Shown here piece after piece: positions 3,048 through 63,859 of a stretch of 64,000 nucleotides of DNA. The position numbers and the translations under genes were made by a program. Each line of letters opens with the position of its first letter. Within the stretch, counting starts at the first letter, position 1. A model generated the notes under the pieces. It searched no databases and was not told where the DNA came from. It saw only the letters and a program-made list of their open reading frames with translations. The stretch is from a virus. Lineage: Duplodnaviria; Caudoviricetes. The stretch is from positions 1 through 64,000 of IMG/VR virus record IMGVR_UViG_3300031992_000074, one strand, 5' to 3'.

Positions 3048-3548
3048 ATGAATTATATTAAAATTACTGAATGTGATACAATGAATGGTATAGGAGTAGG
3101 CATCGTGCTATGAGTTAGTGGATGCAGATGTAAATGTGAAGGTTGTTACAATCAAGAGTCTTGAGATTTTTGTGCAGGGCAACTTTTCACAAAAGAAACC
3201 GAAGAATATATAATTAACTTATTAAAAGAAAAGCCTTATTATACAAGAATAACTCTTTCTGGTGGACATCCATTTGAGCCAGAGAATGAACAAGCTTGTG
3301 AAGAATTGTGCGGCAAAATCAAACAAGAATGCCCTAACGTAAAAATTTGGGCTTATAGTGGTTTTTATTGGGATAAAATTAAAAATAGTCCAATAATGAA
3401 ATATGTCGATATTTTAGTCGATGGACCATTTATTGCCGCGCTATACAACGCAGACTTGAAATGGCGTGGAAGTTCTAATCAATCTGTTATTGATGTTCAA
3501 AAGACTATAAAACAAAATGAGATTGTAATTGCGGAGGAGTTGATATAA
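3048..3548 (+). CDS. nrdG: Class III RNR activating radical-SAM enzyme, 166 aa (needs TGA=Trp)
   Basis: GGAGG RBS at 3036-3040. Reads VLW(TGA 3111)[17 protein letters not shown](TGA 3162)DF with CxxxCxxC; then [21 protein letters not shown]. Confidence 0.93.
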
Positions 3549-3781
3549 TGAGTCAAAGAGTAGATAATTTAATAAATATGTTAGATGGATATGTCGGTGA
3601 TGGTGGTTTTCATCTTAATGTAAATGTTTTTAATAGAGATACTTTATTAGATGCACAAGCACATCCTGAAAAATATCCTCAATTAACAATAAGAGTTAGT
3701 GGTTATGCTGTAAATTTCATAAAATTAACAAAAGAACAACAAGATGAAGTAATAAGTAGAACCATTCACGAATCTATGTAG
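3548..3781 (+). CDS. grcA: Stand-alone glycyl-radical domain (GrcA/YfiD-like; equals PFL C-terminus), 77 aa
   Basis: GGFHLNVNV...[17 protein letters not shown]. Start overlaps the nrdG stop (TAATG). Confidence 0.9.
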
Positions 3782-3792
3782 GAGGTATTCTT

Positions 3793-5820
3793 ATGTGGAA
3801 TAAAGAATGGGAAGGATTTATTGCGGGAAAATGAAGTAATGATGAAATAGATGTTAGAGATTTTATTCAATTAAACTATCAACCATATGAGGGTGACGCC
3901 GCCTTTTTGGAAGGTCCGACAGATGCAACACAAACTTTATGAAAACAAATTCGTGAATTGCAACAAAAGGAACTTAAAAATGGTGGAGTTCTTCATGCTG
4001 ATACAGACATCATTTCTACTATTGATAGCCATAATCCTGGCTACATAAATAAAGGATTAGAAAAAATCGTTGGTTTACAAACTGACCAACCTTTTAAACG
4101 AGCTTTAATGCCTTTTGGTGGTATTCGTATGGCTCGTCAAGCGTGTGAAATGTATGGATATGAAGTAAGTGACAGAGTTAATGATATTTTTAAATATCGT
4201 AAAACTCATAATGACGGAGTGTTTGATGTTTACACAGATGAAATGAGAATGGCAAGAAAATCACATATCCTAACAGGTTTACCTGATACTTATGGTAGAG
4301 GTAGAATTGTTGGAGATTATAGAAGAATTGCGTTGTATGGTGTTGATTATCTTATTCAAAAAAAGAAAGAAGATATGAATTTATTGTGCGGCGAAATGAC
4401 ACCTGATAAGGTAAGAGATAGAGAAGAAGTCGCCGAACAAATTAAAGCACTTAAAGCGTTAAAAAATATGGCAGCTAAATATGGTTGTGATATATCTAGA
4501 CCCGCTAAAAATGCACAAGAAGCAATTCAATGGTTGTATTTTGGTTATCTTGGTGCTGTAAAAGACCAAAATGGCGCCGCAATGAGTATTGGTCGTAATA
4601 GCACATTTTTAGATATTTATATTGAAAGAGATTTAAAGAACAAAGCTTTAACAGAGCAAGCGGCGCAAGAATTAATTGATCACTTTATAATGAAGCTTCG
4701 TATAGTAAAATTTATGCGTATTCAATCATATAACGAACTATTCTCAGGCGACCCTGTATGAGTAACTGAATCTATTGGTGGTATGGGTATTGATGGTAGA
4801 ACATTAGTAACTAAAACATCTTTTAGAGTTTTACATACTCTTGATAATCTCGGTCCTGCCCCTGAACCAAATTTAACTGTTTTATGGGATAAAAATTTAC
4901 CTAGACATTTTAAAGAATTCTGTGCAGACTTATCTATTAGAACAAGTGCAATACAATATGAATCTGATAAATTAATGAGAGAAAAAATGGGTGATGATTA
5001 CTGTATTGCTTGTTGTGTATCTTCAATGAGAGTTGGTAAAGATATGCAATTCTTTGGTGCAAGAGCTAATTTAGCAAAATGTTTATTATATGCACTAAAT
5101 GGCGGAAAAGATGAATTAATGAAAGATGAAAATGGTAAACATATACAAATCGGACCTAAATTAAGAACTATTGATTCAGATGAACCATTAAATTATCAAG
5201 AAGTTATAGAAAAATATACTGATATGATGGAATGGTTAGCCGATTTATATGTTAATACATTAAATGTAATCCACTATATGCACGATAAATATTCTTATGA
5301 AGCATTAGAAATGGCATTACACGATACAAAAGTACATAGGTTCTTTGCAACAGGTATTGCAGGATTATCTTGTGCGGTTGATTCATTATCTGCAATTAAA
5401 TATGCAATGGTTTATCCAATTAGAGATACAGATGGAACAATAATTGATTTCTCTATTGCTGGTGATTATCCAAAATATGGCAATAATGATGATAGAGTTG
5501 ATGAAATTGCCGTTTGGTTGGTTAAAACTTTTATGAATATGATAAAGAAACATCAAACTTATAGAGATAGCGAACCAACAATGTCTATCTTAACTATAAC
5601 TTCTAATGTTGTGTATGGTAAAAAGACAGGTAATACGCCTGATGGTAGACGTGAGGGTGAACCTCTTGCTCCAGGTGCAAATCCAATGCATGGTAGAGAT
5701 TCACACGGAGCGTTAGCTTCATTAAGTTCAGTAGCAAAAATACCTTATGATTATGCACGAGATGGTATTTCTAATACTTTCTCAACAACACCTCAGTCAT
5801 TAGGTAAGGAGGAAGATTAA
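3793..5820 (+). CDS. pflB: Pyruvate formate-lyase catalytic body lacking the glycyl-radical domain, 675 aa (3 TGA=Trp)
   Basis: RBS GGAGG at 3781. WEGFIAGKW(TGA 3832)..[12 protein letters not shown](TGA 3940), [23 protein letters not shown](TGA 4759)[12 protein letters not shown] catalytic Cys pair. Ends [19 protein letters not shown]. Confidence 0.95.
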
Positions 5821-5822
5821 AA

Positions 5823-6050
5823 ATGTACAATTTGCAGTTAGGAGATAACTTATTTGTTGAAATAGATTGCGGAGATCTGTTCATTTATAGATATGATAAT
5901 GAAAATTTATCAGTAGTAAAAGAAGTAACTAAAGATTATCTCCCACCTGTGAATGAGTATGCCGTAGAAATTATTTCTTTTCATAGTAAGCGTCATTTTC
6001 TTTTTAAACGCCAAAATGGCGCTTATTGGTGGGAAGAAATTAAATATTAG
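5823..6050 (+). CDS. Hypothetical protein, 75 aa
   Basis: ORF directly downstream of pflB; GGAGG upstream within the pflB 3' end. Confidence 0.6.
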   Translation: MYNLQLGDNLFVEIDCGDLFIYRYDNENLSVVKEVTKDYLPPVNEYAVEIISFHSKRHFLFKRQNGAYWWEEIKY

Positions 6051-6060
6051 AGGTAAGAAT

Positions 6061-6492
6061 ATGAAAAAAGTAATATTATATACATTATATTGAATTTGGT
6101 CTTTCACTTGAGGAATTATTATGACATTAATAGGATTTTTCGCCGCTTGCGGTCTTGCAATCTCAGGCCATAAACCAAAACATTTAGGTCCAAATATTTA
6201 TTTCGTTGTTGGTAAAAATTGAGGTGGAGTAAATTTTGGTCCATTCTTCTTAACTAGTGAGTATGGAGAAAATTCGACTAAATATCACGAATCTGGTCAC
6301 GGATTGCAAAATTTAATATGAGGACCTTTATTCCCATTTGTTATAGCAATACCAAGCGCAATTAGATATTGGTATAGAGAATTAAAATATTATCGTAAAG
6401 GACAAAGTCCAAAAACTTCATATGATAGTATTTGGTTTGAAGGTCAAGCAACAAGATGAGGAAGAAAAGTTTATAGAAAGGAAAATAATTAA
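6061..6492 (+). CDS. Membrane protein with HExxH (HESGH) motif, 143 aa (5 TGA=Trp); absent from ORF track
   Basis: GAGG RBS. Hydrophobic N-terminus LYW*IWSFTW*GIIMTLIGFF, YHESGHGLQNLIW*GPLFPFVIAIPS, IWFEGQATRW*G (*=TGA). The stop overlaps the thyX ATG. Confidence 0.75.
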
Positions 6493-42986: not shown

Positions 42987-43063
42987 ACTAACACCTCTTC
43001 TTTTCTCTAATAATAGTATAGACCACAAAATTGAAAATATCAACTATGGAGATGTGGCAAAAT

Positions 43064-43094: not shown

Positions 43095-43104
43095 AAATTA
43101 GTTA

Positions 43105-44004: not shown

Positions 44005-44023
44005 CTTTATACCTCATTTTTAA

Positions 44024-46102: not shown

Positions 46103-46604
46103 TAATATCACCTACCGCTGGACGCTTTGATGTATTAACTCTACTATAATGCTCTTCTAACTCTCTTGCATCCGCACGATAAGTGCTATATTGTTTAATC
46201 CACTTATCTATTGCATTAGCTTTTGAGAAAGTTTTTATGTTTGAATCAGTATAAATGTCTTCATAATTATTGGAATTAGACATTAATCTTTCGCACCAAT
46301 ATACTTTCATTCATGCGATGATAATCGATACCTCAGCATACTTAACTTCATCTGAGTTGAAATATGCATGAGGTACTCCATCTTGATCATCATCAGTAAC
46401 TTCTACGGTATTACCGTTGTCGTCGGTTTTCGCATAATAAGTGGTGTAGTCTAATGAGGTATGAGGAAATTTAAAAGCAGATATGGCACGACATGCTAAA
46501 TAATAGCATTCTTCATCTAACATATCTTTTGTAATTACGCCATAATATGAACCTCTTATTGTATCCCTAAAAGCGGGATATAAACAATCATCTCATCTTT
46601 GCAT
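46095..46604 (-). CDS. Head-tail connector/adaptor-like protein, 169 aa (2 TGA=Trp)
   Basis: MQRW*DD.., AISAFKFP, IIIAW*MKVYWCER..SNIKTFSKAN; GAGGTG RBS. Confidence 0.65.
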
Positions 46605-46627
46605 ATATTACACCTCTTTACTTATTT

Positions 46628-47128
46628 TTATTCTTCGTTCAAAGAGAATGATACTTTTAATGTTTGTTCAAGCATTTGCTTTACACCAACAGTAAGTTTA
46701 TCAATGTTTGCTTTTGCTATATCCATAACTTTGTCTTTACCAAAATCTTTTATTGCAGATTCGATTGCTGCTCTGTTACCCTTTTGTAGGCGGGTAAGAA
46801 TAGTTTCATTTGTTTTTTCATCTGCGGGTACAAAGTCTAATTCATCTGCGAAATAAAGATTGGCTTCTTTTGCAGCTTGTAACAATTCATTGGTGTCACT
46901 AAAAGTGAAATACCCTTTCTTAAATAATCTATAAACATCGTTATTAGTAAAAACGCCTAATGCTAAACTGATTGGCATAATTATTTCTTTATTTGTATTG
47001 CTTGCACCTAACTTAATTAATCTTACATTTGAAGGATTATCATAAGGTGATAAATTAAAGATAATTAAATTTGGTGTTGTGTTAATCATTCTAATTGTTT
47101 TGTTAAAATTTACTTCGGACATATTCAA
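46628..47128 (-). CDS. Hypothetical protein downstream of capsid gene
   Basis: Intact ORF; the RBS suggests a start at 47119. Confidence 0.6.
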   Translation of the reverse strand: MNMSEVNFNKTIRMINTTPNLIIFNLSPYDNPSNVRLIKLGASNTNKEIIMPISLALGVFTNNDVYRLFKKGYFTFSDTNELLQAAKEANLYFADELDFVPADEKTNETILTRLQKGNRAAIESAIKDFGKDKVMDIAKANIDKLTVGVKQMLEQTLKVSFSLNEE

Positions 47129-47188
47129 AGTCCCCTTTCTGATAATTTTTATTTTTGGATTTTTATTTTAAAATTAAATGAATAATCG

Positions 47189-47211
47189 GAAGAGTGGGGT
47201 TACCACTCTTC
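47189..47211 (-). terminator. Terminator after major capsid gene
   Basis: GAAGAGTGG-GGTTA-CCACTCTTC perfect 9 bp stem. Confidence 0.75.
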
Positions 47212-47225
47212 TTCATTTATTGCTA

Positions 47226-48323
47226 TTAGTTGTTTTGGATGAATTCAGAATCTTCTAATCCATCAACTGCAGCATCAGATACTTCGATAACTGCATAGTT
47301 GTTAGCCATAGCAAGACCAACACCTAACATTCTATGAATTTCCCACTTTTCTCCACCAACAGCGTTGTTGTTCTTTTGGATCATAGTGTCGCCCTTGAAT
47401 GCAACTTTAACTGGTTTAACGCCTGTAGGTAATAAGAATACCTTGTTAACGTCATAGAACCACTTAGTATTAGAGTTGTCTAGTAAGTAGTTAGGTAATT
47501 CAATTACTTGAGCACCCTTGTAAATAGTTACGTGACCTAAACGTCTAACATCTTCGTTGTCTTCACGAGTTGGATATTGGATTACTACACCACCAGTAGT
47601 TGTTGAAGCAACTGGGTTGTATAATTCAGAAATTGCTTGGTATGAACCAATAATTGTAGGTTGACCATAAGCTTTAACATATGGCATTACTACGTCGATA
47701 GCTTGACCTAATGTAGCCTTAGTAGCAACGATCTTACCACCTTGAGCTTCACCAATTCTAGCATATCCTGCAGCTGGAGTACCAGATGCTAATTCTTCGA
47801 AGATTTCCTTATAGATTTCTTCTTGGAATCCTTCAACGATTGTAGCAAACATTTCAGCTAGACTTACCTTACCAGCAAGTAATTCTTCTAATGAAATGAA
47901 TACTGCAGCAGTTTCAACGAAAGTAGGTAAACTGAATGTAGCAGATGTTAATCTAGCTGCACGGTAGATACCTTCTCTTGAACCTTTGCTAATAACTAAT
48001 TTAGCACGATTCTTACCTAACTTGTTAAGTTCGAATACAACTTCTTCATCTCTAGCAAAAGTTTTAACTTCAGCAAATTGACCTAAAACGTCTCTGATTT
48101 TTGCAGGAACGATTTCATCAACAGCTTCTTCGATTAATGCGAATGCAGCACCTTCTACTGCTCTGATGTCTCTAACAGATGCATTTTCAGGTAAACCTAA
48201 AGTTTCGCAAATTGCTTTAACAGCTGCTTCATTTACATCTAAAGCTGAGAAAGTTGTGTCGCCAAATGCTACAGGTTGGTTTTGGCAAGCGCCTTTAATT
48301 AATGTTAATAATTCTTTTTCCAT
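47226..48323 (-). CDS. Major capsid protein (HK97 fold), 365 aa
   Basis: FALIEEAVDEIVP..LGQFAEVKT, position after protease/decoration genes, strong codon bias, following terminator; no TGA. Confidence 0.85.
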   Translation of the reverse strand: MEKELLTLIKGACQNQPVAFGDTTFSALDVNEAAVKAICETLGLPENASVRDIRAVEGAAFALIEEAVDEIVPAKIRDVLGQFAEVKTFARDEEVVFELNKLGKNRAKLVISKGSREGIYRAARLTSATFSLPTFVETAAVFISLEELLAGKVSLAEMFATIVEGFQEEIYKEIFEELASGTPAAGYARIGEAQGGKIVATKATLGQAIDVVMPYVKAYGQPTIIGSYQAISELYNPVASTTTGGVVIQYPTREDNEDVRRLGHVTIYKGAQVIELPNYLLDNSNTKWFYDVNKVFLLPTGVKPVKVAFKGDTMIQKNNNAVGGEKWEIHRMLGVGLAMANNYAVIEVSDAAVDGLEDSEFIQNN

Positions 48324-48338
48324 TCTTTCTCACCTCTA

Positions 48339-48920
48339 TTACTTTAAGAATACATAAGTATATGATGGTTGACCATCAGCAAACTTATTGCAATCTAAGA
48401 AATCATCTAAACAATATTGAGCATGATCAGTCTTTGTAGAGTCACCATCAATATAGTTTCTAGTAATGCATGCGATACGACCATCAGCAATAGCATCTGC
48501 CATTTGATCGCTATCTGGAGCATAAGTAGTAGTGAATTCATCACCAGGAATTAATTGTACTAAACGAGCAGGATCTTCAGTGATTTCTGCAGCATAGTAG
48601 CTATATCCACCAAATGGTAATAATTCTTCAGTATAAGTTACAAATAATGGAGCTGTTTCATCAGCATTAGTTGCATAATCAATATAACCATCAGCAGTTA
48701 ATTGAGCTAATTGACCATTTTCAACAAATAATTTACCAGGTACTTTTGTAGTGTTGATTAACTTATTAGCTGCAGCGATTGCTGTTGCATCCTTTAATGT
48801 ACCATCAGCGTTATAAACACCTTTTGGTTCAACTTGTGCTACAACGAAGCCAGGTTGTAAACCTTTTAAGTTATTAGGTTCAATAATGTTGAATTTTGGT
48901 AAAAAATCAAAAATATTCAT
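48339..48920 (-). CDS. Capsid decoration/stabilising protein (putative)
   Basis: Between protease/scaffold and capsid genes; high-expression codon style; VENGQL..FVTYTEE..PGDEFTT. Confidence 0.55.
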   Translation of the reverse strand: MNIFDFLPKFNIIEPNNLKGLQPGFVVAQVEPKGVYNADGTLKDATAIAAANKLINTTKVPGKLFVENGQLAQLTADGYIDYATNADETAPLFVTYTEELLPFGGYSYYAAEITEDPARLVQLIPGDEFTTTYAPDSDQMADAIADGRIACITRNYIDGDSTKTDHAQYCLDDFLDCNKFADGQPSYTYVFLK

Positions 48921-48942
48921 TCTTATAACCTCATATATCTTT

Positions 48943-50472
48943 CTATTTATTTAGGACTTTTGCAACGATGTGTCCTAGATCATCGGTTTTATCTTGTGTT
49001 GAATCATTTTTTACCATTGGGTTACAGAAACCTCTAATGATAGTATTTTGAGAATTTTTATAGATTCTTAATAATTCAACGGTTAAATCAGCGAATTCAT
49101 ACTCATCTACTTTAGAAACAAATTCAGTAAATTGTTCATTACTTAATGCATCTTTATATTCATTAATTAGTTCGATTTTTTGCTTTCTCTGATTACTCTT
49201 AAGTTCTTCTTGTTCACTATTAGTAAATGTGGAAGCACTTGCGCCTTCTTCTTGTTTGTTGTTTTCATCTTCATTTACACTATAGGCAGATGAACTCTCT
49301 TGAACTTGCGAATCAGGTGTTTGCTCTTGATTTTCGTCTGCAGGAATTTCTTCCGCATTACTTACTTCTTCTGACTGAACTTGAGCTTGAGCTGGGTCGC
49401 CAATAGGTTGCTCAGGAGTAGGTTCTGTTTGAACTTCTTCTATAACTTCAGGCTCTGATTGTTCCTCTTCAGGAGCATCAAAATCTTCAGTAGGAGTTTG
49501 TTCTACAACTTCTTCTGGGCTAGCTTGGTTTTCTGGATTCACATTTGTTGGGTCTTCAAAAATTTGGCTAGGCTCACTTGCTGGTTCAACAGGAACGTAA
49601 GTAGGTCTAACTTCAACAACGTCACCTAAAGTGACTTCACCATTTTCTGTGCAAGTATATTGAATATCTAAATACTTTTTACCACCCATATAATAATATA
49701 TAACAAAAACGACATGATCGTTAAATGCATCTAATAAAATAGGGTATCCGTCTTCGCTATATTCTTGCATAATGGCTGATGAAACTTTTTCACTTATGTC
49801 ACCCCAAGAAAGCTCCATAAAATCAGAATTCATTTCTCCGCCTCCCTTTTCTACATCATTATTAATATTTGTAGAGTTATCGCAATATTCTCTTAATAAC
49901 TTCATTTTTTCTTCAAAATTAGAATTACTAAAGAAACCAGAACCAGTAAACGCAGGTCTTTGGTCATCGCCTAATATGCTAACACCAATGATTTCTCCCT
50001 CAGTAAACTCCATATTTTTGAAGTGTTTCTTTTCGTCATAGTTAATTTTGTACTTAACAGTACTTGGATTTAACTCTAAAGATTGACTATGACCAACAAT
50101 CTTTTTAGCTATTTCGCCAACTTCTCCAGGGCGTTCAGTGTATAATACTACATCACAAATAGCTCATACGTTACCGTCTTCCATAGTTACAAATGCTGGC
50201 TCACATTTAGGGTCAACGATACCATAAATTGCTTGTTCAGATGCATGACCAACAAAATCATCTTTTTCTCGATCATAATATCCAACGACTGGAGCATATG
50301 CTGCTGTCTTAACTACTGCTTCGGCAAATTCATCACTAAAATATCTTCCATCTGCGGTTGTACCTTTATAAAAAATATTTAGTTTACAACGACTAAAGCG
50401 TGTATCCTTTTCATCAGTAGTAAAATCATGCATACTGGCAGGTAAGCTAAAGTTTAATTTTTTCTTCTTCAT
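48943..50472 (-). CDS. Prohead protease + scaffold, 509 aa (1 TGA=Trp)
   Basis: Track ORFs 50164-50472 and 48943-50013 join via TGA 50164. APVVGYY..FVGH, HSQSLEL, GVSILG..PAF; acidic P/E/Q-rich scaffold region. Confidence 0.8.
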
Positions 50473-50503: not shown

Positions 50504-52111
50504 CTATTCCTTAGTTTGCTTTTTATCATCTGATGGCTCAATTCCAGATTCTTTATCAGCCTGGTCGGAATTCTTACTACTTGATGAATCATCACCTTTG
50601 CTTTCATCACTTTTCTCATTTCCGCTCTGAGTATATGATGTTTGCATTGGTTTTAAATCATTAAGATGTAAGTAGTCTTCAAGAATAAGTTGATCTTGAA
50701 TATTTTTTTGTTTGGTTCCTGATGCTATAAAGTAATCAAGTTTATTAACTCCAAGAGTTGCATTATCCTTATATATCTTTATATCATCATTATAAGTATA
50801 GTTTGAAATTGGTAAAATTTCAATATCGGCTTGATAGTTTTTTCAGTCTCATCCATTGTTGACAGCGATAATATAGAAGTTAGTTATAGCTTCAACGTAT
50901 GTATAAATAACACTTTTATCTCTACGAATTGTCATTTTTAATGCTTCAACACTATCAGAAGTGAAAATTGTACTATTTAAACCTGCATTATTGAATATAT
51001 CTCTATATGCTTTTGCTGTTACATCACTATCTGAGTTTTCTGTATCACTAATTTTTTCGACATGAACTTCACCTCATGTAGTAATTAAACGAGCTTTATC
51101 ATCAACTTCAATTTTATTACGCAACGAACGGTGTAAATCTTGAACTTCATCAACAGTAAAAATTAAATCATTTTGGAAATGAGGCATTGTTTGAACAACT
51201 AAATATTTTAATAAATTGCCGTTACGCTCTAATTCATTATCTTGATATTGCTCATAATTACCAATAGAACCTAAAGTGTATAATAAATATGGAATACCTT
51301 CTGGATTTAACATAATTGCAGTTGAAAAACGAGGGTCTAATGTTTGCCATAAATCATTTTTAGGGTCTTTTTTATATTTTTTATATAATTCAGCAAATTC
51401 TTCAGAAAATGCAGTTTTGATATAATTTATAGTGTCTTTTTCATTTGCGTATCCTAAAGTATCAAAATAATCTAATCTAAATTGAATAATTGTAGTGCCA
51501 TATTGAGTTTGAGCAATAGTTTTACAATAGTGAGGTGGTAATAATAATGTACTTACACAAAATCTTTCTTTATCAAAAATAGCAGTAAGATATACGCTAC
51601 CTTGAGTATATAAATTAGTTAAAATTTCAGGATATATTGTTTCAATACCAATGCCATCAACTACTTCAAGCATTTCTTTATAAGTTAAATCATACTTTTT
51701 GTTCGCCGCACTAGTATTTAATTTTTTTACTCTACTATTAGTCATTAATTCATGAGGAATTACTTTATATCTATAAATAAAGAATTTCGCAAAATAATCT
51801 ACAATAGACTTATAAACGGGATTAGTCATATAAAGTCTAGTAGAAGTATCAATTAAAACTTGTTTTTGAGTACTTGCTATACCAGAATTAATTGCTTTTT
51901 GTAATATATTGCGGATTTCTTCTGCCTTTTTTAACTTTAAATTTTTATAGATGTATGGTTGGTTAGTTCTATTACCTCTAGTAGTTTCATCATCATAAAA
52001 AGTTTTTAAATTTTTTGCATCTACTCTTTTTGTAGAGAAATTAATAGCATCTTGTTGCTCTTTTACTTCTGTTGTTTTGCTATTATTGTTGCTTTTGTTA
52101 TTCTTACTCAT
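50504..52111 (-). CDS. Portal protein, 535 aa (3 TGA=Trp)
   Basis: Between TerL and protease; reads through TGA 51074; LKPMQTSYTQSG near the C-terminus. Confidence 0.8.
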
Positions 52112-52128: not shown

Positions 52129-53940
52129 CTAATTAAAAAATGCAATTTTGCGCTTTTTATTACTATTGCGCGCTTTATTTTTATAATACTCTAATTCTAT
52201 ATACTGATTTACACCTCATACAAGATATTCAGCCATAGAAAAGTAGTCTTTTTGTATTTTATCATTACGTCTAACAACTTTAACTTTATTAGATAAGTTA
52301 TCAGAAGTAGAAGCGATATCTAGATTTTTTAACTCCATCTCCATTTTATCCATTACTTTAAATGGTTGAAGATATGTTAGTTGCTTCTTTTGAGACATAT
52401 CCATAAATGTTTTGTTACGGCCAAATAGTTGGACTGCCTCTTGAGAACGAATTGGGAATGTTAATGCTCCTGTACTCATACGAGAAAAGAAAAATCAATG
52501 AATATGTTCAGTATTGCCGCTACCTGCTTTTATTTCATAACAAATAGTAGCTTCTTTTTCTCATTTATGTAATTCTTTTTCTACATCAGATGGCGGATTA
52601 ATAATTCCATAACCTCTATAAATTTCACCTGTCATTTCATCTTTTGTTTCCTTATTTAATCAGTCACGGATTGCCGCACCGATACCATTAGCATCGTATA
52701 TAAGCATTTTTGCATGATAAGTTATAACTGTATGCTTTAAAATATTTGCAACAGCTAAATAATCACTAATACTAATATCAAATAAATTAACAAACTTATA
52801 TGTAAAGAAGTGGTCTTTTGGTATAACTTTTGCTACACCAACTGCCGTATCCGCTTTACCATCTTTCGCCATATCGGCACATACTACATAAAAACAATCG
52901 TTTGACTCTTGTGCAGGAGAAAGATTATATTCTAATTCAACTTTTTTGATTTGTCTTAAAGTTGAAATTAATGATGCTGAGAAAGCCGCACCTGCTGGCG
53001 CATCAGACCAAACAGATTCATATTCACGCTCAAAAGAGTCTTTACTAAATGATGGCGAATTGATAACATCTTCAATTTGTTTACGAGATGTTAGTCCATT
53101 TTTTAATGGAATACGATATGTCGCACCAATTACGAAATATTTATCAGGTTCAATAACTGAACGACATAATATTTCTATCATCTTTTGATATGCGAACGTG
53201 CCCTGATATCCTGCCGTCGTAACATAGGTCTGTTGTGACTGAGGTTCATATGGATTTATTAAACCATTACTCATAGCACGAGGACGGTTTAACATTGGAA
53301 TTAAAACTTCGTTTACTTTTATTGGGTCTTGCTCAATAATTTCCTCGAAAATTAATGACTCTTTACGCAAACCACGGACACCACCAATTTGTAGTGATGA
53401 ACCATTACGGAAGTTAAATTCTACATAGTCAGTACCCATTTTATAGGCATCTAGGACTTTTCCACCTTTTTTAATCTTCTGCATTTCATTAGCTAAGAAA
53501 GGGAATTTAACCCATAAGTCATTAACAATCTTTTGTTTGGCAATTTCTGCCGCTTGTTTATTTGTACCCGCTGTTACCGCAGTATTGTGGTGCGGGATAA
53601 AAATACATTTTAAATATTTATCTAAGTCTGCAAGGAATGATTTTGAGAAACCACGCGAACAATATACATAAGTATTTATTCCACGAGCCATTACACGTAA
53701 AACAATACGTTGAATTGCAAATAAGTGGAATGAAGATTTTTTTGGAATAATTAAATCAACAAACATATCTGGATATGCAATAAAAGTATTTAATATTTCA
53801 GCTCATTCGTCAAAATGTTCATCAATACGCTCTTTTGTAATTGCACCGGTATGATCGTTTTCATCATCAGACATTAAATCCATTAATTCATAAACTTCAT
53901 CTTCAATATCAAAGTCTAAATCAGTAGAAGTAGAAAGCAT
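52129..53940 (-). CDS. Terminase large subunit, 603 aa (5 TGA=Trp)
   Basis: CSRGFSKSFL Walker A-like, GLRKESLIFEEI Walker B, nuclease VCADMA, DANGIG..W*, KDYFSM. Confidence 0.92.
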
Positions 53941-55166: not shown

Positions 55167-55227
55167 AATAATGTAGGGAATAAAGATAAATGAATAAGTA
55201 TGTTTATATAGATTAGGAGTGATACTT

Positions 55228-56262
55228 ATGACTACTGCTGAAATAATACTTTTGACCTGTTTAATTGCAATATGTGGCTTAGTACTATTTTTAATAATTA
55301 AATGGGTTTTTACAATAAAAGAAAATCAAGAGTTAAAACAAAAGAATAAACAAGACAATAAACGAATTGAAGAATTATCTGTTCTCTTAAAAACTGAACA
55401 AGAAGTTAGTAAGGTACATTTTGATAAAACAGTCCAACTTTCATTAGAAAAGGCAGAACTACAATCGCGCGTAGATAAATTTAATATTAGTCAAGAGTGA
55501 CAAGAACAACATCAAAAAGAAATGGCGGTTATTGATAAGGCTATACAAGATAAAATGCTGGAATTACAATCTCTTGCTTCTGCTTGCGATACTACTAAGA
55601 AAGAAGTTGAAGAACTTAAATTAAATAAAGAACAACTTCAACATAAAGAATTGCAAGTTAAGTCAGATATTGAAAATTTAAAAGTACTATTACAACAAAA
55701 ACAAGCGGCATGAAGTGCGGTTGATAGGTTCGAAAAATGCGGCTTCGGAGATGAATTACCTTATATTGACTATGAAGAGTATTTTTCTAAAAATAACTTT
55801 GAAATTGTATTAAAATTGCTTGATGATTGTATTGAAGTGGCGCCGCAATTTAAGTCCGAGCTTAGAAAAATTGAGTGGAATTTATGTTATTTGCCTTATA
55901 AAAAAGGATTTATTAAAGATTTTAGCCGCAGTGGTATTTATATGCTTGAAGTTAAAAATAAATATGAAAATGATGTGTTAAGGGAATTGGGGCTAAAACG
56001 AATAGATAATGAAGGTAATATTGTTTATATAGGTCAAGCAGTTAATATCTATGATAGATGAACTACGCATATTAAGAAAATGCTTGGAATTGAGGCTAGT
56101 GGCGGAGAAAAATTATATAAATTTAAGCCACTAATGTTTAAATGAAAAGTAATTGAATGATGCGATAGTAGTGAATTAAATGAAAGAGAAAAATTTTGGA
56201 TTGATAGTTTTAAAAGTGATGAATTTGGATTAAATAGCAAAGGCGGAAATAAAAAAGACTAG
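55228..56262 (+). CDS. TM + coiled-coil + C-terminal GIY-YIG nuclease, 344 aa (5 TGA=Trp)
   Basis: N-terminal hydrophobic helix IILLTCLIAICGLVLFLII; SGIYML..VYIGQAVNIYDRW*TTH..LNEREKFWI..GLN. Confidence 0.8.
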
Positions 56263-56296: not shown

Positions 56297-57646
56297 TTAA
56301 TCTCAATAGCAAGAATATGTATAATAAGGATCTTTATAATGACCTCAATCAACTTCCATTTTTACTGTATCATCATATGAATATATTTCATTCCAATTAG
56401 TTGAATTATCATAAGTTAAACCAGTAATACATGATTGATCATCATTACCAGCACCTGTCTCTTCATAAGATCTAATTTGGAAACCGATATAGCGACTATC
56501 TGCAACTCATATTCTTCAATCATGGTCTCCATATTCACCAAAATCATTAATCCAAGTATTAGCATCTTCTGCATTTGGTAAATCACTCGGTATTGCAACT
56601 GGACCAAACCAATCATTATAACCATCATAAGGGAATTTCATTCTTACGTGAGTTGCTGAAGAAGACCTTCTAAATGCGTGATAACTTGTCCATCCTTGTC
56701 CATCTATATACATTCCATTACCATCAGTATTTGACGATAGATAACTACGATTAGGCTTACTAGTAGATGAATAATAAGTATCACTAACTCATTCATTTTC
56801 ATGATATGTTGCATCTACTTCTGCTCAAATATCTGTATTTTGTGTTATTTGTCTAGTTAGAGATGTACTTGTAGAGCCTCCATAAGTGAAATAAACTGAG
56901 TCGCTATTTTGTTTATATGTATAATTGCCTATTAATACACTACTACCAGAATTTAATGTACCTCTATTTGAACCATTTACATAATAAGTAACATCATAAG
57001 CACTTTGATTATGAAGTGTTAAACTATAATATCTTGTACTTCTAGTTGCAACACCAGAAATAGTCATTTCACCTGTTACTATAGCAGTAGGTATTGAAAT
57101 TGTGTTAAAAGCATATGTATAATAATTATCAGCAGGATTTACAATAAAAGTATATGTGTTATTATTTAATGTTATTGTTTGACCAGAATTAGTAATTGTT
57201 GTAAAATGCGGAACATTATATATACTTGTTATTGTTATATTGTTTGAATCTTTTCAATAGCCATAAGTACTTGATAATTCTATTGTATAAGTTTTTAATG
57301 TTGTAGTTGGAGAATAAGAATAAGGAAGACCTTCTTCTAAAGTTTCCGTTGTGTCTTCTATTGACTCATATCCGTCCGCTGCGGCCGCACTACATGTGAT
57401 TGTAGTTACACGAGGAATTTCGACTGTGCCGCTAGTTGTCGCCGCATCTACATAAGTTATATTATCATCACCAATTATTGTGATAGAAGCAATACCAGTA
57501 CCTATAGTATATGAAACGGTACAAGTATTTTTTCAAATTATAACTCCGTTTTTTTGAATCTTTTTTACTTTACCACGTATACTTTCACCATTTTTAATAT
57601 ATGGCATTTCTAAAGATTTAATATCTTTTAAATCATTAAGGTTCAT
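56297..57646 (-). CDS. Tail fibre/adhesin-like protein B2, 449 aa (8 TGA=Trp); paralog of 58373-59989
   Basis: One frame when TGA=W; T/S/Y-rich beta repeats; shares RSTRYYxLTxHN and GHY..YYTYSCxW with the paralog. Confidence 0.75.
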
Positions 57647-57661
57647 AAATAATACAACCTC

Positions 57662-58246
57662 CTATGCTTCAACTAAGAATAACTTGGTAAAATTTGTACC
57701 ATCTTCCATTGTAATTTCTCATTCTTCTTCTAGATACTTAAAAATTTCTTCAGTTGTTGCTTTAACTACATTTGTACCTACAATGATATTTCCGCCGCTT
57801 GCGATGGCAGATGTGACTTTATATGGCGTATTATTATAAATTAATATATCACCTACTGCATACGCTTTACTTGCTGTTTGTGTTAGCTCAACAGTTACAG
57901 TTTTATATGCGGACATCTCATCTAATAGTAATGTATCAAGCTGTTGTAATATATACACTTGATTTGCTTTACAAGTAAGTAGATAAGTTTTATCAGATTT
58001 TACTTGAATATAATAATCATATGTCTCACATAATGAATCTGTTGAATTAAATGATATATCATTGATTTGTTTAAAAGATATTATATTGTTTTCTGTATTA
58101 TATTTTACATAGATATTTTGTCCATATTTAATTATCGCTGAATCTTTTAAACACTCTTGATATTGTTCATCTGTTAAAGTTCCAGAAGCTGATTGTATTT
58201 CAATATATCCAAAAGGTTGTTCAATTGAATCATTTAATTGTTCCAT
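57662..58246 (-). CDS. Tail fibre-associated protein B1, 194 aa (1 TGA=Trp); paralog of 60008-61393
   Basis: GYIEIQSASGTLTDEQY N-motif; reads through TGA 57719 to EW*EITMEDGTNFTK. Confidence 0.7.
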
Positions 58247-58372: not shown

Positions 58373-59989
58373 TTAACTCCACCAACAAGAATAAGTATAA
58401 TATGCTTCTGTATAATGTCCATAGGCTAAATCTGTAAGTAAATTTCTCCAATTAGAAGGGTAATTACCAACAACCAATTGAACAGCTATATCATACCAAT
58501 CGCTATCACCATCACTATCATATTTTGCATAGAACCATATTCTCATATTTTGTCCATTAGAACACCATACAGTGTAATCAAATTCACTACCATAACTATC
58601 ACCGTTCATACCAGAAGGTAAGCCAGAAGGTAAAGGTGCTATATAATCAGTTCCATTATATGTGATTTTTATATGTGTTGATGGTGGAGTGTTATGTTCA
58701 ATAGGGTTCATAGTCCAAGAGTAATAATCATAATCATCTTCATCCCATCCTACACAACTTTCTGAACCGTGAATATAACCCCAATTACCTTTATTATTAT
58801 CTTCTGTATATCCATCAGGTCTGTTATCGACAACGAATTCAGATGGATGATATGTAGAACTTACATTAGCATATATGGTTTGATTACCATTCATAGTTAC
58901 ATACTTAGTTCCTCCAGATGTCCCAGAATAACTGAATGATACGCTTGCACTAGAACCGTAAGTATAACTACTACCATAAGTATAATCACCATATCCTCCA
59001 ACAGTTGCACCATTTCCTAATGTAATTGTATAACTAGAGTTATTATGAACTGTTAATGTGTAGTATCTTGTACTTCTTGATAAAGTTCTTGTTGTAGGCG
59101 AAGAACCACTAGTTCCAAATTCAAAACTTCCTTCTCCTGAATAACTATAACTATTTGTATCTTTATTACTTAAAGATATGCTATTTTTGTTTCTAGTTGA
59201 ATTTTCACAATATAAAGTTACAACTGTACCATAACTTGAAGATATAGAATAAGATTTATTTGAACTTGAATTTGTTACAACAGCTGTGCAGTATGAATTA
59301 TTAGTTATTCTACCTGCCGAAGAATCAACTGCTGTAATTATAGTTGAAGTTACTGAACTTATTGTAGTATTAACTCTAACATAATTATAGCCAGTTCCTG
59401 AACCTAACCATAAAGAGCCTAAACTATTTGTTGAAGAATAAGTACCACTTACACCAGTTATAATTCTATCATCTTTACTATAGTCAGCATACACTTTTCT
59501 TGAACGAATATAAATGTCTATAGAAAGTGAACTTGTATAATAATAATTATTATTAACCACACCATTTAAATTAAGAATTTGACTATTAGCATTAAATGTT
59601 AATGAGCCGTCTGTATGGGTAGTTCCATCATTTAAAACATATCTATAATAAGGAACGGCTGTTGCATTTATTGTTATGTTTCCAGTAACTGTTCCTGTAT
59701 AAGTTATAGTTCTATATCTTGTTACATTATCACAAGTGAAACCATCCCCTCCTGAACCACCACTATCATAACTTGTAAAACAATAACTAGAATTAGCAGT
59801 TAAGGTTACTGTATAACTTGTTCCTTCTTCATATGTTCCTGCTCCTGTGTAAGTAAAGCCATTACCTACAACTGTTATTGTGTATTCTTTAGTACCAGAC
59901 CAAATAATATTCCCATTACTATCTTGAATTTGTTTAACAGTACCTTCTGGTATAGTTATAGATTTTACTTTAGAGAAATCAAAACTCAT
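58373..59989 (-). CDS. Tail fibre/adhesin-like protein A2, 538 aa (11 TGG, no TGA)
   Basis: MSFDFSKVKSITIPEGTVKQI N-motif; S/T/Y/G-rich beta structure. Confidence 0.7.
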   Translation of the reverse strand: MSFDFSKVKSITIPEGTVKQIQDSNGNIIWSGTKEYTITVVGNGFTYTGAGTYEEGTSYTVTLTANSSYCFTSYDSGGSGGDGFTCDNVTRYRTITYTGTVTGNITINATAVPYYRYVLNDGTTHTDGSLTFNANSQILNLNGVVNNNYYYTSSLSIDIYIRSRKVYADYSKDDRIITGVSGTYSSTNSLGSLWLGSGTGYNYVRVNTTISSVTSTIITAVDSSAGRITNNSYCTAVVTNSSSNKSYSISSSYGTVVTLYCENSTRNKNSISLSNKDTNSYSYSGEGSFEFGTSGSSPTTRTLSRSTRYYTLTVHNNSSYTITLGNGATVGGYGDYTYGSSYTYGSSASVSFSYSGTSGGTKYVTMNGNQTIYANVSSTYHPSEFVVDNRPDGYTEDNNKGNWGYIHGSESCVGWDEDDYDYYSWTMNPIEHNTPPSTHIKITYNGTDYIAPLPSGLPSGMNGDSYGSEFDYTVWCSNGQNMRIWFYAKYDSDGDSDWYDIAVQLVVGNYPSNWRNLLTDLAYGHYTEAYYTYSCWWS

Positions 59990-60007
59990 ATTTAATTCCT
60001 CCTTTTA

Positions 60008-61393
60008 TTAATTATCTAACAATAAAATTGTCTTTGTAACAGTAGAAGTTACTCCATTATTTTCAACTGTAAATGTCCAAGTTTCGCTTGAAACTGAAGT
60101 TCCATCGATTTTTAAACCTACTGTATCTATACCTGTAGATGTTACCTTTGCTACTTGTTCGCCTTCAATACCTAGTTCTATGCTAGGATTAGTTGCAGAG
60201 TCGCGTAGATAAATATGATTATTATCACTGGTAGCTATCTCAATTTCATCAGGATATTCTTGACCAATACGAAGATAATTTGTCCTTGATGTTCCTTGTT
60301 GTGTACCATAGTATTTTCTAGCCTCTATCCAAGGATCACCATCTATATCTAATGAATAAGAACAAACAGTTTCACCAGTAGTTTTATTATAATTATTTTC
60401 TAAGCTAAGGCCATTATTATCTGCCCACATTTCTGTTTTATAAATATTATTTGATGAGCTTTCTGTTTTTCCAGTTTGGAAACAATAATCAGAACTATCA
60501 TAACTAGTAAGTAAAGCATGTTTATAACTGTTAGTTCCTGAAGTATTAGAATATAATTCAAGATATACATCCGTATCAGCATTTTTAATGTATGATACAT
60601 TTTCTACTGTTCCTACACTTAGGCTTCCACTTATTGTTTGATTAGCTGTAAATGTATTGGCATTATTTTTGTATGCAACATTAGTCATAGATGGAATATC
60701 ACTCATAGTTGCTATTTTATTTGTTGAAGCATCATAAATACCATTAGTTTGTAATGTTGCTACTTTATTATTTACTATACTTGTAGTTCCTATTTTTACA
60801 TCAGTTACTGGAATGTCACTTGAAGTAATAAATCCTGCACCATTAGTTAAATCATTTGTATCTGCTGGTATTGTTGGTTTATTAGATAGGTTATTATAGT
60901 TTAAATAATAACTAGCATTTTGATTATTTAATTTAGTTGAATTTGCTGCAGTACCAGAAGTAGTTAAATAAGTATTAGTATCAATAGTTCCATCATTTTT
61001 TACTAAACCACTTGTAGATGATTTCTCAATAAAATTACTTACTAAGTTATTAATCTTAGTATAGTTATATGTACTACTTGAAGAATTAGTAATTGCATAT
61101 GCTTTGGTTGAATGTGTCACTTCACATTTTATTTTATTTGTCGTTATATAATCTCCAGAATTTGAAATATCAATTGATACAAACTCAATAAAATAATTAT
61201 CATCATTACTAATTTTATATAACCAAGATGCACCATCTAAATTTATAACGCAATAAGGTTTTAATGCTTCGGCATATTGTTCATTAGTTAATTTTCCACT
61301 AGTGCTCGTTAATTCAATATAACCTACTCTATTATCTTTTATATTTCTTGCCTCGGTATCACCAGGCAATTTAATTTTTGAAATATTCGCCAT
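60008..61393 (-). CDS. Tail fibre-like protein A1, 461 aa (no TGA)
   Basis: GYIELTSTSGKLTNEQY, YNNLSNKPTIP..TNDLTNGAGFIT fibre motifs, C-terminal SETWTFTVEN. Confidence 0.7.
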   Translation of the reverse strand: MANISKIKLPGDTEARNIKDNRVGYIELTSTSGKLTNEQYAEALKPYCVINLDGASWLYKISNDDNYFIEFVSIDISNSGDYITTNKIKCEVTHSTKAYAITNSSSSTYNYTKINNLVSNFIEKSSTSGLVKNDGTIDTNTYLTTSGTAANSTKLNNQNASYYLNYNNLSNKPTIPADTNDLTNGAGFITSSDIPVTDVKIGTTSIVNNKVATLQTNGIYDASTNKIATMSDIPSMTNVAYKNNANTFTANQTISGSLSVGTVENVSYIKNADTDVYLELYSNTSGTNSYKHALLTSYDSSDYCFQTGKTESSSNNIYKTEMWADNNGLSLENNYNKTTGETVCSYSLDIDGDPWIEARKYYGTQQGTSRTNYLRIGQEYPDEIEIATSDNNHIYLRDSATNPSIELGIEGEQVAKVTSTGIDTVGLKIDGTSVSSETWTFTVENNGVTSTVTKTILLLDN

Positions 61394-61419
61394 TTATTAA
61401 CCTCCGTAATTAAATGATT

Positions 61420-61443
61420 GGTAGGGAATATTATATCCCTACC
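61420..61443 (-). terminator. Intrinsic terminator
   Basis: GGTAGGGA-ATATTATA-TCCCTACC perfect 8 bp stem. Confidence 0.7.
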
Positions 61444-61481
61444 TTTCATTAAGATTAATATTTTTTATTTTTATTTTATTA

Positions 61482-62918
61482 TTATTCAGATGCATCTGCG
61501 CTTACTGTAATAGTTACTGCACTACCTGTGAATGTAGGAGTAGTTGTTGTTGTAGTAGGTAAGCTATTTGCAACGAATGTATCTTCACCTTGTTCAAATG
61601 AAGGTAATGTACCAGGATTGAAGAAATCTGAACCAATTGATGCAGGAGTGAAATCAAATGTAATTGAACTTACTTCTTGTGAAGTGTAATTTACATTTCC
61701 AGAAACTTCTGCCCAAATATCACTTTCTGATATATATGGGAAGTTAGCATCTGCTGTATCATAAGAATCTGTTCCTTGAGTAAATGAAGGTAATGTTCCT
61801 TGAGTAAATGCACCTTCAGTGAATGAAGGTAATGTACCTGGATTGAATGATCCTTCTGTAAAGCTTGGTAATGTACCTTGACTAAATGTTGTAGAAGGAG
61901 TTAAAGCAGTACCAGGAGTTGCAGCACTAAATACTAACATTTCATCATCACTAGCATCAACTGCTACTGTAACACCAGTTGTTGCAAAAGTTCCGCTTGA
62001 AGGTGTAAATACAGGCAATGTACCGGCTGAGAATGTATCTGCAGTTTTACTTGGTAATGTACCAGCAGTAAATGTATCTGAAGCTTTAGTTGGCAATGTA
62101 CCAGCTGAGAATGTATCTTCGCCTTGTGAGAATGATGGCCATGTACCGCCATATAAGAAGCCTTCGCCAACATGTATGTCAGCGCTTAAATTTTCTAATT
62201 CAACTGAACCATCTGTTAAAACAACAGAAACATTAGTTAAATCACCACCATCAAATTCACTTTCATCAATAGATGGTAGAGTACCTTCATCGAATGAGTC
62301 AGTTCCTTGAGTGAATGAAGCAGAAGTACCAACAGTACTAATTGTAGTAAATGGTGAAATTGTACCTGTTGGAGTATAGCTTGTTGAAGCTGTATCAGCA
62401 TCTGCTAAATCACCAAAAGTGTGAACGTCAGTAGTTGAATTATCTTTAGTTTTAGTTAAAGTGTGAGTACTATCTACATAATTAATATCAGTTAAATAAT
62501 CACTTAAATCTACTTGAGTTGAACCGATTTGTTCGTTAGTGTATCTTTGAGCAGCTTCTTCTCCATTATCAACAGTAATATATTCTAGATAAGTACCTGC
62601 GGCAGCTTGTGCATCTGCAATTAAATAAATAACATACATTGTTTCTGCACTTGGTGTAGGTAAAGTTGTAACTACTTCATAGCTAAAAGCGTGAACTCCT
62701 GCAACTGCAGCATCAACATAAGATTTAATATTTTGAGAATAAACGAATTTGTCTTGTTCGTTCATTGCTCCGATTTGACCTTTAATTATATCTTCATTGA
62801 AACCTTCAACAATTTTTCTAAGGTCTGCATCCTTTAAATACTTGACGTCATTTGCGCCTTCGCCAAGTTTAATTTTTGATAAGACATTATCATGTCCATA
62901 ATTTGGTGTCCAAGACAT
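61482..62918 (-). CDS. Repeat-rich fibre-like structural protein, 478 aa
   Basis: Acidic, T/S/F-rich; EYIT..EQIGSTQVDLSDY motif; about ten GTLP(S/T/V) repeats. Confidence 0.7.
   Translation of the reverse strand: MSWTPNYGHDNVLSKIKLGEGANDVKYLKDADLRKIVEGFNEDIIKGQIGAMNEQDKFVYSQNIKSYVDAAVAGVHAFSYEVVTTLPTPSAETMYVIYLIADAQAAAGTYLEYITVDNGEEAAQRYTNEQIGSTQVDLSDYLTDINYVDSTHTLTKTKDNSTTDVHTFGDLADADTASTSYTPTGTISPFTTISTVGTSASFTQGTDSFDEGTLPSIDESEFDGGDLTNVSVVLTDGSVELENLSADIHVGEGFLYGGTWPSFSQGEDTFSAGTLPTKASDTFTAGTLPSKTADTFSAGTLPVFTPSSGTFATTGVTVAVDASDDEMLVFSAATPGTALTPSTTFSQGTLPSFTEGSFNPGTLPSFTEGAFTQGTLPSFTQGTDSYDTADANFPYISESDIWAEVSGNVNYTSQEVSSITFDFTPASIGSDFFNPGTLPSFEQGEDTFVANSLPTTTTTTPTFTGSAVTITVSADASE
61600..62330 (-). 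repeat. GTLPSFxxG / GTLPSKxxDTFxA intragenic repeats
   Basis: Recurrent GGTAATGTACC / GGCAATGTACC on the + strand at about 30-39 nt spacing. Confidence 0.75.
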
Positions 62919-62982
62919 ATTTTTTATAGCCTCCGAAAATTTTCTTGTTTTTATTTTTATAATAATCCTTTTTTAGGAATTA

Positions 62983-63486
62983 TTATCACGGTTTATTTAA
63001 TACTAAACACTCAGAATCTTCTTCATTCATTGTAAAATTAATTTCATCAATAGCATCTGTAACTGCTTTTTGAGTCATCGCACCGTCTGTGTTTTGACCA
63101 TGAATTGTATATAATTTTACATTTGTATTTAATATTGTAAATCTACCTATTGCTTTGAAATAATATACGTTGCCAGTTGGCAAGTCTTTATATAATTTTG
63201 TTAATCATTCAGTTAATTTCTGTTTAGTCGGATCATCTAATGGTTTATCATAAAAAGATTGAGTTACACTGTCGTAATACCCTTCTATGACAAGTTGATC
63301 ATTAACTTCACCACCAAAGTATGGTAAATCAATATAATTATTAATACCATCACCTATTTTCATTCGATTAGTATCTGTTTCTCAAACAGGTTCACCTTTT
63401 AATGGTTTCTTTGTACCAACTAAAACTTGATTTAAAGCGGTTTTTTCACCTCTTTTTAATTGAATAGAAGTTATTATATTACTCAA
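62983..63486 (-). CDS. Fibre-base-like protein (Mtd-N/hyaluronidase-N-like motif), ~167 aa (TTG start, 3 TGA)
   Basis: IQLKRGE..GEPVW*ETDTNRMKIGDG..YIDLPY; HGQNTDGAMTQKAVT; GGAGGTG RBS. Confidence 0.65.
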
Positions 63487-63859
63487 TTGTAATTTCACCT
63501 CCATCAACTAATAGAGTATCAATTTGTCCTTTAATATCATCAATATCATCTTCTATATTGTCAATTTTTTGATCTTCTGCATCAAATTTGTCATCAATAG
63601 AATCTTTACTATAGTAAGGATCTAAACCTCCTATGTAAACAAAATTATTATTTGTTCATTTATAATAAGATTGTCCATCATCGTGGTCTTCATCAACTAA
63701 TACTTTAACTATATCATTATCAGTAAGTTTTGAAGTATCATAATTGTCTAAATCACTTTTACTTTGTACGATATCGGCAACATCGGGATTATTTTTGAAC
63801 TCATCTAATGAATGCTTTGCACTTCCGGCTAATGCTCTTGCGATATAATCAATTGCCAT
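63479..63859 (-). CDS. Tail-fibre-associated hypothetical protein, 126 aa (1 TGA=Trp)
   Basis: DVADIV..DIVKVLVDE..SYYKW*TNNNFVYIG; continues to TAA 63479. Confidence 0.65.

Follow-up and report, generated by a model that had tools for sequence, protein, structure and literature searches.

Evidence for TGA as a tryptophan codon, unevenly used along the genome, in a tailed phage of the ruminant gut

The stretch of DNA analysed here (the window) comprises bases 1-64000 of a single linear virus record of 79,069 bp, IMGVR_UViG_3300031992_000074, in which TGA lies within many genes. This raises the question of whether TGA is a stop or a sense codon in this phage, which amino acid it specifies, and how it would be decoded in the infected cell. 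The contig has a GC content of 29.7%, and its completeness was given as 71% by CheckV. The sequence is present in public gut metagenomes of sheep and cattle and in one sheep metatranscriptome, and the sheep-gut runs X1/X2 contain 89% of its sampled words. As a whole, the data are most probably explained by a tailed phage which reads TGA as tryptophan, has a partitioned code, infects a host with the standard code and depends on a tRNA of the type identified in its relatives. As a part of this joint explanation, and with the same good probability, the window represents most of a tailed ruminant-gut phage of about 110-130 kb which is distantly SPbeta-like.

TGA as a sense codon and the amino acid assigned to it

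Open reading frames (ORFs) were called over the whole 79-kb genome by a greedy, non-overlapping procedure with a minimum length of 50 amino acids. Under translation table 11, the standard code, 119 ORFs covered 78.5% of the genome, and 44 of them "ended" in TGA. Under table 4, 92 ORFs covered 92.9%, all ending in TAA or TAG, which is a gain of 14 points with TGA as a sense codon. Table 15, with TAG as a sense codon, gave a coverage of only 82.8%, and the reassignment of TAG was rejected for the little coverage it added; table 25 has the same set of stops as table 4. A stop-to-stop frame analysis agreed with this ranking. The comparison had been proposed by an earlier reading of the window made without database searches (the sequence-only reading), which had also taken TAA and TAG as the genuine stops. 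In agreement with this, of the 90 complete ORFs called under table 4, 63 have TAA and 27 have TAG as their stop, and the same two stops close the TGA-free genes, a test of low power since TGA stops are also rare in the candidate host (1 of 19).

In the window, 111 in-frame TGAs were identified in 27 of the 55 genes, close to the earlier count by hand (about 108, in about 26 genes). For the whole genome, 43 of the 92 genes contain TGA (overall share 47-49%), and about half of the tryptophan codons of the phage are TGA. Single contiguous family matches were shown to cross the TGAs in pyruvate formate-lyase (PFL), NrdG, the portal protein, the tape measure protein and the exonuclease; the Pfam PFL-like match, for example, extends over residues 17-609 of 675. 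Many TGAs are shared at the same codons with independent contigs of other samples (L001, L002 and L008/L103; 81-94% amino acid identity per gene, 87% nucleotide identity for L103), and a second assembly (ENA ERZ27257202, a contig of 63.9 kb beside one of 10.9 kb) encodes an identical PFL. The TGAs are therefore not assembly errors, and the sequencing-error alternative named in the sequence-only reading was not upheld. In this phage TGA is a sense codon, and no stop other than TAA and TAG is needed. Under table 11, half of the genes in the window are truncated or lost; annotation, host prediction and protein clustering of this phage and of its large clade need table 4.

For PFL, the TGAs at codons 14, 50 and 323 are all located at a tryptophan which is invariant in 119 homologues and is also present in the PFL structures of the Protein Data Bank (PDB). 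In the alignment of NrdG to E. coli PflA (PDB), codon 41 faces tryptophan and codon 24 phenylalanine. On the codon level, a comparison to six related phage contigs gave 123 aligned pairs, in which a TGA of the window faces TGG in 38%, TGA in 31%, tyrosine in 10%, phenylalanine in 7%, leucine in 5% and glycine in 0%; the TGG codons of the window show the same substitution spectrum in these contigs. At 33 of the 63 TGA sites which could be aligned to relatives, TGG is present in at least one relative. When BLOSUM62 scores were summed over the 63 sites, tryptophan (510) came out far ahead of tyrosine (183), phenylalanine (119), cysteine (-138) and glycine (-206). A 564-residue repeat protein uses both codons at equivalent positions, TGG in one of its repeats and TGA in the remaining ones. 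In an alignment of the paralogues A2 and B2, from two cassettes designated A and B, the TGAs of B2 are matched by Y, F or W (TGG) residues of A2.

Tryptophan as the meaning of TGA was thus supported by every test run, each of them a comparison of sequences. Because the evidence from PFL, codon pairs, BLOSUM sums and repeats or paralogues agrees on tryptophan, glycine (table 25), cysteine, selenocysteine and a true stop were rejected. For glycine, as in phages of Absconditabacteria/Gracilibacteria, a GGN codon was found at none of the 63 sites, and the BLOSUM sum is the negative value given above. The sequence-only reading, which had proposed tryptophan, is borne out by these results, and the motifs it quoted are located at TGA codons (bracketed): GIVL[W]VSGC in NrdG, GDPV[W]VTES in PFL, SPNV[W]RKYA in the RuvC-like protein and IYDR[W]TTHI in the GIY-YIG protein. 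It had also listed the large terminase (TerL); here, five TGAs are present in a terminase-like gene, the identity of which stays putative, with matches only to PHROGs of unknown function and no hit in a PDB sequence search.

Five genes were observed to carry a TGA within their last one to four codons, with a TAA shortly after (24540-25193, 42267-43043, 56297-57646, 62983-63507 and, in genome coordinates, 68470-68739), while about 1.6 such genes are expected by chance. These near-terminal TGAs could be former TGA stops which are now read through to a back-up stop. In at least one of these genes (B2), the near-terminal TGA aligns to a C-terminal tryptophan in the paralogue. The two cassettes adjoin each other at low identity (A2/B2 28% over 269 residues, A1/B1 36% over 98 residues), with 15 TGG and no TGA in cassette A (58373-61393) and nine TGA and four TGG in cassette B (56297-58246).

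Partition of TGA use along the genome

The sequence-only reading had assigned code 4 to the genome as a whole. The meaning of the codon stood, but its use is not uniform, with TGA-free modules (nrdD, 6492-23474 and 58373-62918) located beside TGA-rich ones. In the replication block (6492-23474), 48 TGG and no TGA were found, versus 38 TGG and 73 TGA in the late minus-strand genes at 27084-57646, which served as the reference set (Fisher p=3e-17). The three genes at 58373-62918, with 18 TGG and no TGA, also differ from the late genes (Fisher p=5e-8). In structural, nuclease and several accessory genes, TGA makes up about two thirds of the tryptophan codons. In general, early and replication genes were found to be in the standard code and late genes to be recoded, with nrdG, PFL and the exonuclease as exceptions. 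With 0 of 48 versus 73 of 111 tryptophan codons as TGA, this is a clear further case of a two-code genome, with an unusually sharp boundary.

The replication block is also free of TGA in a distant complete relative, IMGVR_UViG_3300014039_000001 (G001), a genome of 112.8 kb with direct terminal repeats, 40% GC and 45-65% amino acid identity to the present phage. The avoidance of TGA in this block is therefore old and maintained.

A pattern in which TGA means tryptophan, late genes are recoded and replication genes are standard is already published for recoded gut phages which infect standard-code hosts, as the sequence-only reading had noted for the phenomenon itself. The Agate phages, with about 127 kb and identified in the guts of cattle, pigs and tortoises, are recoded from TGA to tryptophan; their replication machinery is encoded in the standard code, their structural, lysis and homing-endonuclease genes are recoded, and as a stop, TGA has almost disappeared (Borges et al., bioRxiv 10.1101/2021.08.26.457843). 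Suppressor tRNAs were detected in only 35% of the code 4 genomes, and the Agate examples include an 80-kb partial genome (bioRxiv 10.1101/2021.08.26.457843). The present phage matches the Agate-type description feature for feature, being likened to it by shared traits only: tryptophan at TGA, the gut source, TGA-free replication genes, a rare TGA stop, a suppressor tRNA with the anticodon UCA in a part of the genomes (here, in relatives of the phage), and a switch of strand and GC skew, here near 26 kb in the window. It differs in that this incomplete contig is without a suppressor tRNA, and in that a PFL/nrdDG module and an extra tRNA arm (see below) are not mentioned in the searched text of Borges et al.

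Phages which read TAG as glutamine (crAss-like, Lak and phAss-1 phages; PMC7886860, PMC10607447, PMC9523058) resemble the present phage in the reassignment of a stop codon in late genes, in their standard-code hosts and in a phage-encoded suppressor tRNA, but both the codon and the amino acid are different. The phAss-1 capsid protein was identified as a weak relative (28% identity). Metaproteomic proof of recoding covers code 15 only, and none for TGA-to-tryptophan phages was found in that paper (PMC9523058). This analysis adds the quantitative inference of tryptophan, the sharp two-code partition, the likely site of the suppressor tRNA, the evidence for a standard-code Acholeplasmatales-like host lineage, and an independent confirmation of the conserved hairpin with a CCA-bearing loop in the tRNA of the clade.

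The partition might also be due to mosaic ancestry and mutational drift instead of selected timing. With a suppressor present, AT pressure would then turn TGG into TGA, and the TGA-free genes would be those under the strongest purifying selection or those acquired last. Switches between TGG and TGA are indeed common between close relatives, with three TGAs in PFL and two in nrdG of this phage versus one each in contig L103, and the paralogous cassettes A and B, TGA-free and TGA-rich, lie side by side. Here, also the GC-richer G001 fits, which has the same kind of suppressor tRNA and far fewer TGAs; the change to table 4 raises its coverage only from 84% to 92%, and the extent of recoding thus seems to track AT-richness. 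However, the lack of TGA in the replication module extends to distant relatives and to the published Agate clade, and 0 of 48 is far from what drift would lead to expect, so that an origin of the partition by drift is regarded as unlikely.

Candidate decoder, host lineage and the proposed switch

In the 79-kb contig, no tRNA was identified by ARAGORN under two codes or with Rfam RF00005, in a sequence which is 71% complete. In contrast to this, G001 encodes ten tRNAs, including a tRNA-Trp(CCA) and a 96-nucleotide tRNA with the anticodon UCA (87402-87497, minus strand). A closer relative, L103 (ENA NODE_1477), which shares 86% amino acid identity in PFL and 87% nucleotide identity over bases 1-6624 of this contig, contains a 96-nucleotide UCA tRNA at 5997-6092 (plus strand), 9.6 kb upstream of nrdD. 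It has the same architecture as the G001 tRNA, with 70 of 96 nucleotides identical. The IMG/VR contig L113, with 90% nucleotide identity to the first 1733 bases of this contig, carries a tRNA (at about 639-734) identical to that of NODE_1477 about 11 kb upstream. Since this contig begins only about 500 bp before nrdD and the tRNA lies about 10 kb upstream in the relatives, a homologous tRNA locus would be located in the unassembled part of the genome. When compared with L113, contigs from four runs in which this phage is present cover the tRNA region, and in one variant the extra arm of the tRNA (see below) shows a compensatory change; in such mixed metagenomes, this is consistent with a tRNA of this phage but does not tie the tRNA to it.

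The UCA tRNA of the relatives has an ordinary tRNA score in Rfam, with an encoded CCA end and an anticodon loop of CUUCAAA. Its A1-U72 pair and G73 are bacterial tryptophan identity marks. In the variable region, an extra hairpin of 22-23 nucleotides is present, the loop of which (N-U-C-C-A-A-A) has the anticodon-loop sequence of tRNA-Trp(CCA). In IMG/VR, searched by pattern, the tRNA body was identified on 33 contigs and the extra hairpin on 24 of these. In an alignment of 20 distinct tRNA sequences, compensatory changes were found in five of the six hairpin pairs, and the U, both C and the first A of the loop are invariant. Bacterial tryptophanyl-tRNA synthetase (TrpRS) reads the CCA anticodon and G73. 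It is plausible that the hairpin would keep the recognition by the host TrpRS on a tRNA in which the true anticodon is changed. If the two-armed suppressor tRNA works as proposed, it would be nature's solution to a problem known from engineering, that of keeping synthetase identity after an anticodon change; a literature search identified no paper on a suppressor tRNA with a CCA-loop hairpin. Neither a release factor (RF-1 domain) nor a TrpRS was found in this contig or in the complete G001, Pfam scans included, and the host TrpRS would therefore have to charge the UCA tRNA.

The host was approached through the PFL gene, which is shared with cellular genomes. The protein of the phage has 77-82% identity to the PFLs of gut metagenome-assembled genomes (MAGs) labelled Acholeplasmatales, Anaeroplasma or "uncultured Bacillales", with 28-33% GC and 1.0-1.9 Mb. 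In 13 such low-GC genomes, the PFL gene contains TGG only (7-8 codons each). A neighbourhood of 19 genes in the candidate host lineage contains 41 TGG, no in-frame TGA and one TGA stop. In five genomes, nearly all of the Ile-, Val- and Leu-tRNA synthetase frames of 870-938 residues are without an in-frame stop; one weak match of 646 residues contains a single TGA. From these three sets of genes, it follows that the cellular PFL lineage uses the standard code. Three of the nine tryptophan codons of the phage PFL have been turned into TGA, all at invariant sites, and a close relative has one such change; with the nearest PFL lineage in the standard code, these TGG to TGA changes therefore arose since the capture of the gene. 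It is thus shown directly that a gene of a standard-code lineage, once captured, had conserved TGG codons turned into TGA. To judge from this gene comparison, the probable host is a bacterium of the Acholeplasmatales/Anaeroplasma type with low GC and the standard code; such gut Acholeplasmatales-like bacteria are poorly studied for phages.

The PFL of the phage is split into a body of 675 residues and a glycyl-radical gene of 77 residues. The same split was observed in the host lineage, with a 676-residue body followed by a 77-residue Gly_radical ORF (L007:10001-12280), and a solved PFL of 687 residues (PDB 38la) ends at the same point as the phage body. The split is therefore inherited and not an invention of the phage. 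The phage arrangement differs from the cellular one only by the location of the small gene upstream of the body; in sequence, the phage PFL has 80-82% identity to cellular PFLs in this comparison.

The host might instead be a mollicute of the Mycoplasmatales/Entomoplasmatales type which natively uses table 4. The phage would then mirror its host without any switch during infection, and its TGA-free blocks would be recent imports from standard-code phages. The GC content of 30%, the mollicute-related source of PFL and the lack of a tRNA on the contig would fit to such a host. Phages of Mycoplasma and Spiroplasma resemble the present phage in tryptophan at TGA and low GC. In these phages, however, the host supplies the code and a uniform use is expected, whereas here a 17-kb block has 48 TGG and no TGA, and both a tRNA-Trp(UCA) and a tRNA-Trp(CCA) are encoded by the relatives themselves. 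The TGA-free replication block is also present in G001 at 45-65% amino acid identity and 40% GC, which argues for long-term selection and not for a recent import. In addition, the nearest cellular genomes with PFL are in the standard code. The share of TGA-bearing genes is 26-71% in recoded phages of standard-code hosts and about 90% in code-matched phages (code 25) (bioRxiv 10.1101/2021.08.26.457843); the 47-49% found here lies below the latter value and does not show a uniform use. A native table 4 host is accordingly considered quite improbable.

That TGA encodes another residue (glycine, cysteine or selenocysteine), or represents true stops, pseudogene lesions or sequencing errors, can practically be dismissed: ARAGORN labels the UCA tRNA of the relatives 'SeC' by default, but this tRNA does not have the 8/5 acceptor/T arm of the selenocysteine type, and the absence of glycine codons, the BLOSUM sums, the recurrence of the TGAs in independent assemblies and the gain in coding density all stand against it.

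For a tryptophan-reading phage in a standard-code host, the following course of infection can be proposed. The host would read TGA as a stop, and the TGA-free genes would therefore be translatable on entry. Genes containing TGA would be finished only after a phage-encoded suppressor tRNA-Trp(UCA) has built up, with the extra CCA-loop hairpin as a possible handle for the host TrpRS. TGA would in this way gate the translation of the late genes and, among the early enzymes, of single partners, namely NrdG and the DnaQ-like exonuclease. In its full form, the proposal is a tentative one, drawn from codons and tRNA genes: the phage may switch an Acholeplasmatales-like standard-code host to code 4 in the middle of infection by only one tRNA-Trp(UCA), whose second, CCA-bearing hairpin would allow it to be charged by the host TrpRS, and TGAs may also time one partner of early pairs (NrdG and not NrdD, the proofreading exonuclease and not the polymerase).

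Several points weigh against the joint explanation given at the outset. The suppressor tRNA was detected not in this genome but only in its relatives and in same-sample contigs, and the role of the extra arm in charging is a conjecture. The host was deduced from one acquired metabolic gene, PFL, only. A search for a prophage copy with the terminase-like protein among 185,579 species genomes gave none, and a DNA search with bases 1-20000 of the window against 307 genomes of the candidate host order had only PFL among the top matches listed, at no more than 78% nucleotide identity, with no spacer-like match shown. The timing of the gate is something we infer from the codon distribution. Furthermore, the TGA-containing nrdG, PFL and exonuclease genes share apparent operons with early genes that are free of TGA, and a radical-SAM-like gene in the plus-strand arm likewise contains TGA; a simple split into early and late genes is therefore too crude.

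Genome map and further observations

The features of the genome are listed in Table 1. The replication block codes for a ThyX-like protein, two topoisomerase II subunits, a Sak4-like protein, a DnaB helicase, a primase, RecJ and a DnaE/YorL-type polymerase of 1338 residues.

Table 1. Features of the window, identified by PHROG and Pfam scans of table 4 translations
Feature	Position	Strand	TGA and TGG codons	Basis and remarks
nrdD, anaerobic ribonucleotide reductase	506..3031	+	0 TGA, 8 TGG	PHROG 487, E=1e-178; readable in the standard code
nrdG activase	3042..3548	+	TGA at codons 24 and 41	PHROG 626
Stand-alone glycyl-radical domain protein, 77 aa	3548..3781	+	no TGA	Pfam Gly_radical, E=3e-22, profile positions 52-106 of 106
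Pyruvate formate-lyase (PFL) body, 675 aa	3793..5820	+	TGA at codons 14, 50 and 323	Pfam PFL-like, E=6e-207
158-aa protein	6016..6492	+	5 TGA, 3 TGG	without family match
Replication block, 13 genes, 5466 codons	6492..23474	+	0 TGA, 48 TGG	PHROG/Pfam
Radical-SAM-like protein and DnaQ/RNase_T-type exonuclease	23477..25193	+	5 TGA; 5 TGA, 0 TGG	PHROG/Pfam scans
Three small genes (123, 151 and 67 aa)	25225..26319	-	2 TGA each	no significant family
HNH/RuvC-like resolvase	26340..27074	+	2 TGA	PHROG 159
Tail fibre protein	27084..28109	-	0 TGA, 1 TGG	PHROG 1980
1773-aa late protein	28165..33486	-	16 TGA, 6 TGG	without known family
564-aa Trp-rich repeat protein	33498..35192	-	17 TGA, 5 TGG	
Tape measure protein	37079..41818	-	7 TGA, 4 TGG	PHROG 4211 and others
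Head and tail structural genes	41846..50472	-	TGA use mixed, few Trp	
Probable major capsid protein	47226-48323	-	0 TGA	inside the head and tail gene set
Portal protein	50504..52111	-	3 TGA	PHROG 2739, E=1e-44
Putative large terminase	52129..53940	-	5 TGA	adjoins portal; SRGFSKS / LIFEE motif pair; not a family match
GIY-YIG endonuclease	55219..56262	+	5 TGA, 3 TGG	Pfam GIY-YIG
Cassette B, two genes (449 and 194 aa)	56297..58246	-	9 TGA, 4 TGG	paralogue of cassette A
Three genes (538, 461 and 478 aa), including cassette A	58373..62918	-	0 TGA, 18 TGG	
Two small genes	62983..63859	-	3 and 1 TGA	Pfam scan; one with Mtd_N domain

A relationship to SPbeta-like siphophages of Bacillota was identified for the DnaE/YorL-type polymerase (37% identity over 98% of the length) and for the capsid protein, with 22-30% identity to its counterparts in SPbeta-like Enterococcus, Clostridioides, Bacillus and related phages. 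These are very distant relatives, and in contrast to the present phage, the SPbeta phages are in the standard code.

Of the words sampled from bases 1-10000 of the window, 37% are present in run X4, a metatranscriptome of the sheep gut, so the early region is contained in an RNA library, in which a carry-over of DNA is possible.

Tryptophan accounts for 22 residues (3.9%) of the 564-residue repeat protein (33498-35192, minus strand), located in about five repeats that are marked by the motifs W-T-D-G-x-x-I-Y-Y and K-T-W-x-G-L-T; the protein is without a family match. A search of IMG/VR for relatives of this protein with its 17 TGAs gave none. For the terminase-like protein, a large family of homologues was observed, hundreds of which are encoded on contigs of 110-139 kb. 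One protein with 84% identity to it, P0132, has been deposited as a protein of a Methanobrevibacter MAG, a label most likely due to the erroneous binning of a low-GC phage contig.

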